DNA of 64,000 bases from Dictyostelium discoideum (Eukaryota): the NCBI GenBank assembly GCA_000004695.1, contig CM000155.2, positions 2,432,001 to 2,496,000 of the forward strand, given 5' to 3'. The position numbers and the translations under genes were made by a program. Under the pieces are notes generated by a model that searched no databases, was not told where the DNA came from, and was given only the letters and a program-made list of their open reading frames with translations. This document shows positions 38,030 to 45,486 of the stretch, piece after piece; within the stretch, counting starts at the first letter, position 1, and every line of letters starts with the position of its first letter.

Positions 38030-40785
38030 ATGGAAGAGTTTCATAGAAGTTTTTGTGAGTACATGGAGAAAGAGCATCCTGGACATTGGCTAGATACGAT
38101 CTTGTATGGGGATATAAATAATAGGAATATTATCATTAATGAAGCTTTGGAAGAGATTTGGAGCCAGGAAATATATGATAGTATGCCACTATTATTGAGT
38201 AATAATAATAATAATAATAATAATAATAATAATAATAATAATAATAATAATAATAATAATAATAATAATAATAATAATAATAATAGTAATAATAATAATA
38301 ATAATAATAATCATATTAATAATAATAATATTAATAATAATAATCATAATAATAATAATAATTCTAAAATTGGTAAAGTGAATGTTGATGTTGGTGAATT
38401 TTGTTTTGACAAATACTATAAATATTTAAACAATTTTGAAGAATCAAAAATAAATATATCAATAGTTAAACAGTTTGAATTCTATATTAAATGTGTTTAT
38501 TTTATTTAATATTTTAAAAAAAAAAACCTGTTGGCTATATATATATATATGATAATTACTTAAAAATGATATTAAAATCTTCTTTTGAAAGTTCAAAAAA
38601 TCCGTGAAAATAATAAACACATTTAATATAGAATTCAAACTGTTTAACTATTGATATATTTATTTTTGATTCTTCATAATTGTTGTATAAAAAAAAAAAA
38701 AAAAAAAAAAAAAAAAAAAAAAGGATTGTTTTAAAATTTAAAAAATTCTATACAAATAAATTAGAATTTTATAAATGGGAAAGTTATATAGCTTGTAGAT
38801 ACCCAAAATATTTTTCATATTTTTATAAAACACCTCAAATTAATGATATTATTGATACAGTTGTAACAGATTTACTTTCAAAACCAAGTAAAGAATCTTT
38901 TAAATTTTTATTAGAATTTATTGAAAGTGTTAAAAGTTTTACATGTGCAGTATGTATGATTATATATATATAATTTATATATTCAATAATTTTTTTTTAT
39001 TCATTTTTATTTAATTTAAATAATAATAATAACATTTTTTTTTTAATTTTATTATGTTATTATGTTTTATTTTTTTTAAAAGGAATTATCAAATAAAATT
39101 TTTAAAATTGTTATCAAAAATCATATGGTATTGGTAGTTATAATTTATTATTTATATAAATAATATTAACCGAAAAATTTAATTTAAGAAATGTTGGGAC
39201 TATTTATGATTTCATTATAAATATTACCAGTTTGGAGACTCTCAATAAAAAAAAAGATAAAGAATATATTGAAATTAAAAAATTTAATTAGGTTTTGTAT
39301 TTGTAAATCTTTTAGGATTTTATGGAGCAGATTTACAAATACAAAACCAACAATATTTATTAGAAATATTTAAATATTTAAATATTATCGTAGCAACAAA
39401 AACTCAACATTATCAACAACACCACCACAATGGAATTCTGATAAATTCTTTAAATCATTATTTCCTGATGCATTCTTTAGAGCATTGTTTCATTCTAATC
39501 AGGTACTTTTTAAACCAACTAAAACTGAATACATTTTCAAAATGGTTGAAGCTTCAACATCTTTATCAACAAATAATATTAAATCATTATATGATGCAGC
39601 TTTTCAATTTTCATTAAAATCATCATCATCACATTTCACATCCGCTGTATCAACTTTTTCACCATCTTTATCACCAATATCAACTTTATTTCAATCACAT
39701 AAATCCTTATCAGAATTATTTGAATCTATATATCAATAAATAATAATAATAATAATAATAATAATAATAATAATAATAATAATAATAATAATAATAATAA
39801 TAATAATAATAATAATAATAATAATAATAATAATAATAATAATAATAATAATAATAATAATAATAATAATAATAATAATAATAATAATAATAATATTAAT
39901 AATAATAATAATAGTAATAGTAATAGTAGTATAAAAAGATCATATTCTGCTATGGTGGAAGAAAATAATTATCCAAACAACAATAATAATGATAATGATA
40001 AATTATGTATTGAAAATATTTTGGAGAAATTCAAATTATTCAGTCAAATTCAAACAGTATATTTCTATGTCTCATCCAATGAAGTACCTATACTACCTAG
40101 AGTATATATACAACCAGTTATTAAATCAGCTATGGAATTTATTTTATCAAACTTCAAAATGGTTAACAAAGTTTTATTTATGGATGAATATGGCCCTCCA
40201 TTGAATTTTTATTGGTATTATTTTTATAAAATATTACTTAAAGTGAATATAAATACTTTTGATTTCATAGAGTTTCATATTGATAACCAACCTTATATCA
40301 CAAAGGCTATTGAAGAAAATAATAAAAATAATCAACTACTACAAAACCAACAAACAACAACAACAACGACTACAACAGTAGCAACAACAGAAACAGTAAC
40401 AAAACAACAACAACAACAAGATAAAGAACAAACCCACGAAAACATTGAATTTACAGAATTTTATGGCTTTAACGAAAAGAATAGCGAAAAAGATAACCAA
40501 GATAGAGAAGATGAAGATGAATTTTCAGATGATTGTAGTTCCGATTCATTTTATTTTTGAGAGTACTCTGATAAAAGAGAACTTGGTCAAACCGATGATG
40601 GCCAATCTGAACCATCAAAATATGTCAATATGAAACATTTTTATCATGGTGCTCCAAATATTTCTGATGATGATTCTGATGAATATGATTGCGCAGTTCA
40701 CTATTTAAATTATCAAGCAGTAGAAGCTTCCTTACAAGGAATGTTGGGTACTTTAGGTATTTTTGATGATTCATTAATTGATTGA
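38030..40785 (+). pseudogene. Degenerate tandem paralog (copy A) of the gene at 41465..45486. It has internal deletions between (AAT)n tracts, a frameshift, an in-frame TGA and a small inversion.
   Basis: The ORFs 38030..38509, 38680..38973, 39485..39739 and 39952..40560 are collinear and 70-95% identical to successive parts of the downstream gene. Shared peptides include KYLNNFEESKIN..VKQFEF, YKWESYIACRYPKYFSYF, LFHSNQVL..PTKTEYIFKMVEASTSLSTNNIKSLYDAAFQFSLKSSSS and SIENILE.FK.FS.IQT.YF. About 1.2 kb of the middle is missing. AGA is replaced by TGA at about 40558 (SDSFYF*), with the downstream sequence still in frame. Confidence 0.6.
39738..39925. repeat. (AAT)n microsatellite of about 185 bp, the deletion scar in pseudogene copy A.
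   Basis: Uninterrupted AATAAT... joining sequence that in copy B is about 1.2 kb apart and flanked by shorter (AAT)n tracts. Confidence 0.8.
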
Positions 40786-41464
40786 TTGATTGATTCATCA
40801 CTCTATTCAAATATAAAGGATCACCCAAACTAATTCTATTTTTAATATTAAAAGATTTTTATTACCAATAAAACCAATAAATAAAAAATAAAAAAAAAAA
40901 AAAAAAAATAAGATTTGTTTTAATTTATCACTAATTGTGTACCTCTTTAACTTTATTTATTTTTTTATAATTTTTTTAAAATTTATTTTAAATAAATAAA
41001 AAAAAAAAATTGTTGAAATTAATAATGGTTATTTAAAAGCAAAATTTTAATCATTTCCAATTAAAATTTTTTTTTATCTCTTTATTTATTTTCTATCCAT
41101 TTTTAATTTATCAAAATAAAATTCCAAATAAAAAAAAAAAAAGAAATATGTTTAAATTTAATTTTTAAATTACCAACCAAACAAGATTTTCAAATTAATA
41201 TTAATAAAATTATTATCAATTTTTGTTTAAATTTCTAAAATAAAATAAATTAATGTAATGTTATTAAATATAATTCAAAAATTTCCTAATGTATCTAAAT
41301 AAAAAAAAAAAAATAAAAAAATTATACACCTTTTTAATTTATTTTTGTTTTTATTTTTATTACACTTTTTTTTTATTTTTTTTTTGTTGTTTTTTCACAT
41401 TTTTTTTTTTGTTTTTTCATTTTCTTTTTTTCATTTTCTTAATTCCATTTTTTTAATTTCCACA

Positions 41465-44400: not shown

Positions 44401-45486
44401 GTAACCATACAATCAGTTATTAAATCAACACTCGAATTTATTTTATCAAACTTCAAAATGGTCAACAAAGTTTTATTCATCGATGAATATGGTCTTCCAT
44501 TGAATATTGATTGGTATCATATTTTAAATATATTACCTAAAGTGAATATAAATACTTTTGATTTCATAGGGTTTCATATTGATAACCAACCTGATATCAC
44601 AAAGGCTATTGAAGGAAATAATAAAAATAATTTATCAATTAACCAACAACAAAAAGAACAACCAACAAAAACAACAACAACATCAACAAAAACAACAACA
44701 ATAACACCGACAGTAGCAGAAACAAAACAACCAAAAGCAGCAAAAACATCAGAAACAAGACAACCAACACCAATAAAAACAAAACAAACAACAACAACAC
44801 CAACACCAACACCAATAAAAACAACACCAACACCAACACCAACAACAACACCAACACCAACACCAACAACAAAAATACCAACACCAACACCAACAACCAC
44901 AAAAACAACAACAACACCAACACCAACAACAACACCAACAACAACAACAACAACAACAACAACAACAACAACAACAACAACACCAACACCAACAACAACA
45001 CCAACACCAACAACAACACCAACAACCTCAAAACAACCTCAAAAACCTAAAGAACAATCGCATGAAAACATTGCTTTTACAGATTTTTATGGTTTTAATG
45101 AAAAGAATAGTGAAAAAGATAGCGAAGATGAAGATGAAGATGAAGATGAAGATGAAGATGAAGATGAAGATGAAGATGAAGATGAAGATGATGAGGATAA
45201 GTTTTCGGATGATTGTAGTTCTGACTCATTTTATTTTAGAGAGTACTCTGATAAAAGAGAACTTGGTCAAACTGATGATGGACAATTCACTCCATCAAAA
45301 TATTCCAGAACGAGACATATGTATCATGGTGGTGGTGGTGATGATTCTGATGATTCTGATGATGGCTCAGACTCTGATGAAGCCGCTAACTTTTTTGCTC
45401 ATCAATTAGCAAGAGCTTCATTACATGGAATGTTGGGTGCTTTAGGTTTTCTTGATAATTCCGATAGTGACGATGATTCTGATTGA
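41465..45486 (+). CDS. Lineage-specific protein (copy B, intact) of about 1,250 aa with poly-Asn tracts, a Thr/Pro-rich mucin-like segment and an acidic (ED)n tail. Inferred 3 exons: 41465..41820, 41907..~42137 and ~42292..45486.
   Basis: Exon 1 is MNLANILDKALEELREKEL ... KSVYFHEFELSKEDLNIVFK, ending at AA|GTAATT. Exon 2 (acceptor A(n)AG) is KIISKFKKFYTKIGYYKWESYIACRYPKYF ... ESVNDYICTV, ending at a conserved CAGTAT|GTAT donor also seen in copy A. Exon 3 carries the 1,047-aa track ORF, whose 'M' is TTG and whose frame is open upstream to a TTTTAG acceptor. A hand-count frame inconsistency of 1 nt in exon 2 means the junctions need RNA evidence. Confidence 0.5.

Follow-up and report, generated by a model that had tools for sequence, protein, structure and literature searches.

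A tandem gene copy on chromosome 6 of Dictyostelium discoideum as a probable non-processed pseudogene beside its intact paralogue

The DNA analysed here, a stretch of 64,000 nucleotides (nt) of Dictyostelium discoideum (assembly GCA_000004695.1, contig CM000155.2, positions 2,432,001 to 2,496,000 of the forward strand; below, the window), carries two copies of one gene, A (38030-40911) and B (41465-45599), which lie head to tail on the same strand, both spans including homology in the 3' flank. The analyses presented below indicate, with a probability that we put at about 0.9, that copy A is a non-processed pseudogene beside its intact tandem paralogue B, disabled by independent, derived lesions in the AX4/AX2 lineage. 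The locus lies on chromosome 6, in a window that is very AT-rich (guanine-plus-cytosine content 15-35%), and copy A is situated directly downstream of an open reading frame (ORF) of 2007 amino acids (aa; 31701-37724) that corresponds exactly to DDB_G0293090 of D. discoideum AX4. Three lineages were compared: the window together with GCA_054883475.1 (AX4/AX2), GCA_054859355.1 (hereafter L001) and GCA_054859385.1 (hereafter L004).

Collinear copies and the lesions of copy A

A blastn self-comparison of 37.0-41.2 kb with 41.2-46.5 kb, in which matches due to (AAT)n noise were set aside, returned a chain of collinear blocks on the same strand with 75-94% nucleotide identity (Table 1). The homology runs past the coding ends into the 3' flank, as far as 40911 in copy A and 45599 in copy B. 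Copy B has the look of a functional gene of three exons: its introns of 87 and 122 nt are of the GT..AG type, with GTAATT and GTATGT as donors, its spliced frame is open, and the same span is annotated as a 1269-aa gene in the second assembly, GCA_054883475.1. An earlier reading of this DNA, made from the sequence only, had described both the head-to-tail collinearity and a copy B whose parts splice into one gene of about 1,250 aa; the self-alignment that it proposed as a check bears out the former, and the model of 1270 aa the latter. The state of copy A is different. When the B protein was compared with the copy A region by tblastn, the homologous pieces were scattered over all three frames and contained internal stops. 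Both introns of copy A are nevertheless found at homologous positions, with the intron-1 acceptor and the intron-2 donor and acceptor regions conserved.

The 5' part of copy A is broken by a small inversion. The inverted segment is the reverse complement of L001 10274-10460 and includes the GT donor of intron 1; because the exon end and the donor are gone from this strand, exon 1 runs on into a stop at 38507-38509. The first 73 nt of the inverted segment are also kept in direct orientation, at 38429-38501, and form the core of an inverted repeat in which 72 of the 73 positions are identical and the arms are separated by a spacer of 100-110 nt. At the inversion junction about 4 nt of AT-rich sequence overlap, a length at which microhomology and chance are indistinguishable. 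A small fold-back rearrangement of the template-switch kind, combining inversion with inverted duplication, may have flipped the last part of exon 1 together with the donor of intron 1. The sequence-only reading had assumed a frameshift at this first junction, a view that gives way to the inversion. Its further proposal that N-terminal blocks were lost from copy A does not hold either: the copy retains an N-terminal extension of its own of about 32 aa (MEEF...), which it shares with the intact orthologue in L001.

A further loss concerns exon 3. Where copy A has one fused and expanded (AAT)n tract, approximately 966-1020 nt are missing relative to its orthologue, and 1145 nt (43130-44274) relative to copy B. 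In L001, the genome with both copies intact, this segment is the best-conserved region between A and B. The earlier reading had put the loss at about 1.2 kb between (AAT)n tracts and ascribed it to a repeat-mediated deletion; the gap does lie exactly between AAT tracts that are separate in B and in the intact A orthologue, and the deletion would have arisen by recombination or slippage between two such tracts encoding poly-Asn. Upstream of it, five frameshifting indels and a nonsense substitution, TAA at 39157, separate copy A from its intact orthologue. Downstream, the 3' 834 nt (39952-40785) form one frame with the TGA at 40558-40560 as the sole interruption. The latter codon reads AGA in all five other copies examined, and the frame stays open afterwards to 40785, as had been noticed before. 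The earlier list of lesions was thus right about the deletion and the TGA and incomplete as to the other indels and the TAA at 39157. The inversion, the five frameshifting indels, the deletion of about 1 kb and the two nonsense codons (TAA 39157, TGA 40558) preclude the ancestral product. Copy A would accordingly be without its original function.

Table 1. Positions of copies A and B, of the copy A lesions, of the collinear blocks and of neighbouring features (window coordinates)
Feature	Position	Strand	Details
Copy A, probable non-processed pseudogene	38030..40785	+	orthologue of the intact 1173-aa L001 gene
Copy A exon 1 remnant	38030..38501	+	ATG at 38030; A-specific N-terminal extension; expanded poly-Asn tract
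Inverted segment, 187 bp	38498..38684	-	last 125 nt of exon 1 and first 62 nt of intron 1
Inverted repeat	left arm 38429..38506, right arm 38607-38684	.	78-nt arms, 96% complementary
Copy A exon 2 (YKWESYIACRYPKYF...)	38724..38949	+	open; AG acceptor 38722-38723 and GTATGT donor 38950 preserved
Copy A exon 3, 5' part	39083..39739	+	five frameshifting indels and nonsense TAA relative to the intact L001 orthologue
Exon 3 lesion, -13 nt	39108	+	relative to the intact orthologue
Exon 3 lesion, TTA>TAA nonsense	39157-39159	+	relative to the intact orthologue
Exon 3 lesion, -2 nt	39267	+	relative to the intact orthologue
Exon 3 lesion, -26 nt	39291	+	relative to the intact orthologue
Exon 3 lesion, -163 nt	39374-39383	+	relative to the intact orthologue
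Exon 3 lesion, net -1 nt	~39721-39728	+	just before the AAT tract; creates TAA 39737-39739
Fused, expanded (AAT)n tract, ~165 nt	39738..39905	+	deletion junction; tracts separate in L001 A and both B copies
DDB_G0293092 (XP_629316.1, Q54CA3), 202-aa ORF	39952..40560	+	exact match; in-frame 3' part of exon 3, ends at TGA
DDB_G0293094 (XP_629317.1, Q54CA2), 51-aa ORF	40630..40785	+	exact match; copy A C-terminal tail
Copy B, intact gene	41465..45486	+	1270 aa; exons 41465-41820, 41908-42136, 42259-45486
Central B segment	43130..44274	+	without counterpart in window A; AAT tracts at both ends
Collinear block	A 38128-38503, B 41476-41776	same strand	84-85%
Collinear block	A 38689-38957, B 41873-42141	same strand	88%
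Collinear block	A 39308-39364, B 42531-42587	same strand	89%
Collinear block	A 39465-39775, B 42815-43129	same strand	94%, E 2e-134
Collinear block	A 39976-40401, B 44275-44706	same strand	85%
Collinear block	A 40333-40521, B 44960-45150	same strand	79%
Collinear block	A 40499-40911, B 45179-45599	same strand	75%
tRNA genes Glu-CTC and Ala-AGC	46516-46588, 47676-47748	-	two genes

Orthologues in other lineages and the age of the duplication

A word-indexed search with full-length copy B was swamped by low-complexity words, and the only relative it returned was P0001, a 1173-aa hypothetical protein of L001, an assembly deposited as D. discoideum. P0001 begins with MEEFDRSF..., like window A (MEEFHRSF...) and unlike B, and is therefore the intact orthologue of copy A. 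The gene order around it (AP-sigma, reticulon, the DDB_G0293090 orthologue, P0001, a 1271-aa gene, a THH1/TOM1-3-domain gene) is syntenic with the window; the flanking genes are 89-92% identical at the nucleotide level, and the DDB_G0293090 orthologue pair shows a synonymous divergence (dS) of 0.12. The 1271-aa gene is the orthologue of copy B. Both L001 copies are intact; their order matches that in the window, and their three-exon structure that of window B. The B orthologues compared, at 14503-18511 in L001 and 12402-16806 in L004, and the copy in the window make copy B intact in all three lineages, with 1271, 1390 and 1270 aa, respectively.

The four-way protein alignment of A and B from the window and L001 is collinear throughout, and window A and L001 A have A-specific characters in common; over aligned bases the two are 91.7% identical. 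As both L001 paralogues are intact, each lesion of window A is polarised as a derived loss rather than a gain in copy B. L001 A has one private change of its own, an in-frame deletion of 30 nt at about 11460 (P0001 'KFFKSLFPHQVLL'), at a site where window A and both B copies keep ...DAFFRALFHSN...; some of the differences between window A and its orthologue therefore do not reflect decay on the window side. The parental exon/intron layout and context of copy A are preserved: it stands in tandem with B in a locus that is syntenic in three lineages. A processed pseudogene (retrocopy) was considered and ruled out, given the retained introns and the position of copy A next to a paralogue with which it is collinear.

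Copy A of L004 is 97.6% identical to that of L001, from which L004 differs by a flanking-gene dS of 0.03. The annotation splits this copy into two genes, of 579 and 534 aa. It carries three private lesions, namely a 1-nt deletion in exon 2 (CCC>CC), an Arg codon turned into a stop (FKE*ILY) and a 2-nt insertion. The window has none of the three; copy A was therefore disabled on at least two independent occasions, while it is still intact in L001. Both L001 and L004 were deposited as D. discoideum, and their flanking-gene dS to AX4 is about 0.12. The JBTAP* assemblies, GCA_054883475.1 among them, appear to come from the Nanopore and Illumina project PRJNA1300491 (Holland et al., PNAS 2025, PMC12745789), which sequenced AX2-214 and wild isolates, and some isolates deposited as D. 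discoideum represent, in the view of its authors, a cryptic species or D. citrinum. The dS of about 0.12 between L001/L004 and the window is consistent with that reassignment.

The divergence between the two copies bears on the age of the duplication. A and B differ by a dS of 0.15-0.22, compared with 0.12 in the flanking orthologue pair, and in the N-terminal third they are only 75-83% identical. An A-B dS above the orthologue dS and the presence of both copies in L001 mean that the duplication predates the lineage split (dS ~0.12). The tandem duplication of this clade-restricted gene is old, having occurred well before the AX4 lineage split from that of GCA_054859355.1/GCA_054859385.1. The sequence-only reading had presented the locus as a case of pseudogenisation after tandem duplication, which the polarity given by L001 and the second assembly support, with the refinement that the duplication is not a recent one. 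One central block (B aa ~470-560, window ~43080-43350) departs from the general divergence, as A and B are about 96% identical there, whether they are compared inside one genome or across genomes, a pattern that points to old gene conversion or to unusually strong constraint on the block. As a separate observation, the B orthologues show a dS of 0.054-0.063 (870 codons), less than half that of DDB_G0293090 and of the A pair (~0.12).

Annotated fragments, selection and alternative explanations

Several observations weigh against the view of copy A as a pseudogene. Two public annotations, those of AX4 and GCA_054883475.1, call fragments of copy A genes. In AX4, DDB_G0293092 and DDB_G0293094 are listed as protein-coding genes for hypothetical proteins, the 51-aa ORF of the latter lying past the TGA in the same frame as the 202-aa ORF of the former; GCA_054883475.1 places a 341-aa gene at 38030-39739 and one of 269 aa at 39952-40785. 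The surviving ORFs are substantial: reading from the ATG at 38030 yields 159 codons, and the 3' end offers 202+74 codons in one frame, interrupted by a single stop. Fragments of copy A may be transcribed or translated. Relaxation in window A, moreover, was not seen. With B as the outgroup, nonsynonymous and synonymous changes number 36 and 16 in window A, as compared with 32 and 8 in L001 A (Fisher p = 0.34), and private amino-acid changes 29 in window A and 25 in the intact L001 A. The comparison of the two A copies over 448 unambiguous codons gave a dS of 0.127 and a nonsynonymous divergence (dN) of 0.078, a ratio of 0.61, while dN/dS amounts to 0.67-0.87 between the B copies of the window and L001 and to 0.75-1.0 between A and B. 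The baseline of the family is thus near neutral (dN/dS 0.6-1.0), so that a loss of constraint in copy A would be invisible and dN/dS is uninformative either way. Since the selection tests are uninformative, it is on the structural lesions that the assignment as a pseudogene is based.

The annotated fragments invite another explanation, namely that copy A was broken into one or more smaller functional genes, such as DDB_G0293092 expressed from its own start and keeping a conserved C-terminal module. The 3' 834 nt in a single frame with one stop, the coincidence of the ATG at 39952 with a Met of the intact orthologue, the genes annotated here in both assemblies and the lack of a detectable nonsynonymous excess on the window A lineage would all fit such a fission. 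We nevertheless regard it as improbable. What immediately precedes the 202-aa ORF is an (AAT)n stretch of about 165 nt and a frameshifted region, where nothing points to a promoter, and the TGA removes the C-terminal tail (EYSDKRELGQTDDGQ... and ASLQGMLGALG), one of the segments best conserved between A and B. Open frames of this length are expected soon after inactivation, and the independent disabling of copy A in L004 suggests that it is dispensable. The identifiers DDB_G0293092 and DDB_G0293094 are not mentioned in the literature searched. The gene models of the second assembly rely on improbable splicing. The 269-aa model (ACTFIT_009132, L003 18242-19075) is 8 codons short of the open span, which fits the removal of a 24-nt gt...ag 'intron' at 40537-40560 that holds the TGA; with an intron so implausibly short, the model would be a gene-prediction artefact. 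For the 341-aa model, all 24 splice combinations enumerated need weak donors (e.g., GTTTG), and most of them micro-exons as well. We infer that DDB_G0293092, DDB_G0293094 and the 341-aa and 269-aa models are ORF remnants of one pseudogene and not real genes. A doubtful but more far-reaching proposal, to which we attach a low probability, is that copy A is being lost repeatedly and independently across the discoideum/citrinum clade, with heavy decay in AX4/AX2, recent disabling in L004 and an intact copy in L001, or that the 202-aa DDB_G0293092 is expressed as a truncated protein. If recurrent loss were true, the locus would hold a natural functional/null polymorphism of a fast-evolving orphan gene, maybe under shifting or conflict-type selection.

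Two other explanations deny the decay itself. The lesions might be assembly or sequencing artefacts, for instance a collapsed AAT tract or a mis-joined inversion, in a reference that is rich in AT and in repeats, all the more so as lesions lie in or beside low-complexity tracts (AAT runs, poly-A), which pose difficulties for assembly. Complex sequence, however, surrounds the two nonsense substitutions and several of the indels, and the independent Nanopore and Illumina assembly GCA_054883475.1, which carries a protein identical to DDB_G0293090, shows every lesion base for base. It is 100% identical to window 37990-40800 save for one length difference in 2.8 kb, a poly-A run of copy A intron 1 (~38686-38722) that is 7 nt shorter there. 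The identity of copy A in this assembly excludes assembly error, and the artefact explanation is effectively refuted. Hardly more credible is the possibility that the short form of A is ancestral and that B and L001 A acquired the central 1 kb and further blocks through insertions, without any decay. Nothing specific speaks for it, beyond the formal alternative polarity that every indel has. The central block is about 96% identical in L001 A and both B copies, so that one deletion in the AX4 lineage accounts for the pattern far more economically than insertions in parallel; furthermore, the frame of window A is broken on either side of the gaps, and the inversion leaves the splice donor on the wrong strand. 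For the genomes compared, the four-way alignment refutes this explanation. Decay of copy A beside an intact copy B thus remains the reading that we prefer.

Gene family, neighbouring repeats and comparison with known systems

The protein encoded by copy B consists of poly-Asn tracts, a Thr/Pro-rich mucin-like stretch, which within the family pair is restricted to B, an acidic tail and several well-conserved globular-looking blocks. Pfam returned no domain in copy B or P0001, and a sequence search of the PDB no relative of the parent protein. An exhaustive HMMER search with P0001 over 1.84 billion cluster representatives found only P0003, of the same family, and P0004, a distant relative of 428 aa (31% identity, E 1.7e-4); the two stem from one and the same Dictyostelium project. 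Homology searches with an N-terminal query free of low complexity gave no match, and those with a C-terminal copy A query none beyond itself. In the window, a scan did not find family members beyond copies A and B, and exact-sequence database look-ups gave no match for the 1270-aa copy B model or for several ORF-based 5' copy A candidates. As far as these tools reach, the family is restricted to the Dictyostelium clade, and the sequence-only reading of it as lineage-specific and devoid of a recognisable domain is confirmed. An F-box identity was considered for the LP..IL..VCK.F motif (B aa ~566-605) and rejected, since neither B nor P0001 nor the isolated motif had a Pfam match to PF00646 or related profiles; the sole F-box profile match was a sub-threshold one on P0004 (E 0.79; 10.2 bits, where the cutoff is 20.5). 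For the central 446 aa, AlphaFold2 gave an unusable model, with a mean predicted local distance difference test (pLDDT) score of 39.9.

Further downstream, several copies of a repeated element (46.9-53.25 kb), with 200-bp tandem units at about 50.0-51.2 kb, surround the two tRNA genes. The element holds two equal ORFs of 444 aa (47985-49319 and 50983-52317), neither of which has a Pfam match. L001 lacks the element, and only about 50 nt separate its two tRNA genes; in L004 pieces of the element occur in the opposite orientation. We take its position to resemble that of tRNA-gene-targeted retroelement copies, presumably of the TRE5 type.

The main value of these results concerns annotation. Q54CA3 and Q54CA2 should be merged and flagged as a pseudogene, and likewise the 341-aa and 269-aa models, because such fragments inflate the counts of 'orphan' proteins. 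The locus also offers a fully polarised example of how an AT-rich, poly-Asn-rich Dictyostelium gene may die, through deletion between AAT tracts, fold-back inversion and small indels, and of a clade-restricted family that tolerates losing one copy. It is otherwise an ordinary duplicated pseudogene, with no bearing on long-standing open questions.

Copies A and B resemble the partial tgr copies described in the same clade and genome set (PMC12745789), which are also lineage-restricted, fast-evolving tandem duplicates, truncated or pseudogenised in some isolates and intact in others. They differ from these in being unrelated in sequence to the tgr genes and devoid of TIG domains (Pfam), and in forming a two-copy syntenic locus on chromosome 6, whereas tgrBC is a hypervariable hotspot on chromosome 3. 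The loss of about 1 kb, flanked by AAT in both intact relatives and replaced by one fused tract in A, is what would be expected of a deletion between direct microsatellite (AAT)n tracts encoding poly-Asn, a mechanism read from the junction only, with a breakpoint that is not placeable inside the repeat. The 187 bp inverted, with 73 bp also kept in direct orientation and a near-perfect inverted repeat as the outcome, are likewise reminiscent of fold-back or template-switch inverted duplications, although the event in copy A, at under 200 bp, is very small. As compared with non-processed pseudogenes in general, copy A is unusual in two respects: its parent family is near neutral (dN/dS 0.6-1), which hides the signature of relaxed constraint, and it is unflagged in public protein sets, which carry its fragments under the label of hypothetical proteins. 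In all else it corresponds to this class, with its exon/intron layout and 3' homology kept, with frameshifts, stops, a deletion and the loss of a splice site, and with an intact paralogue at its side.

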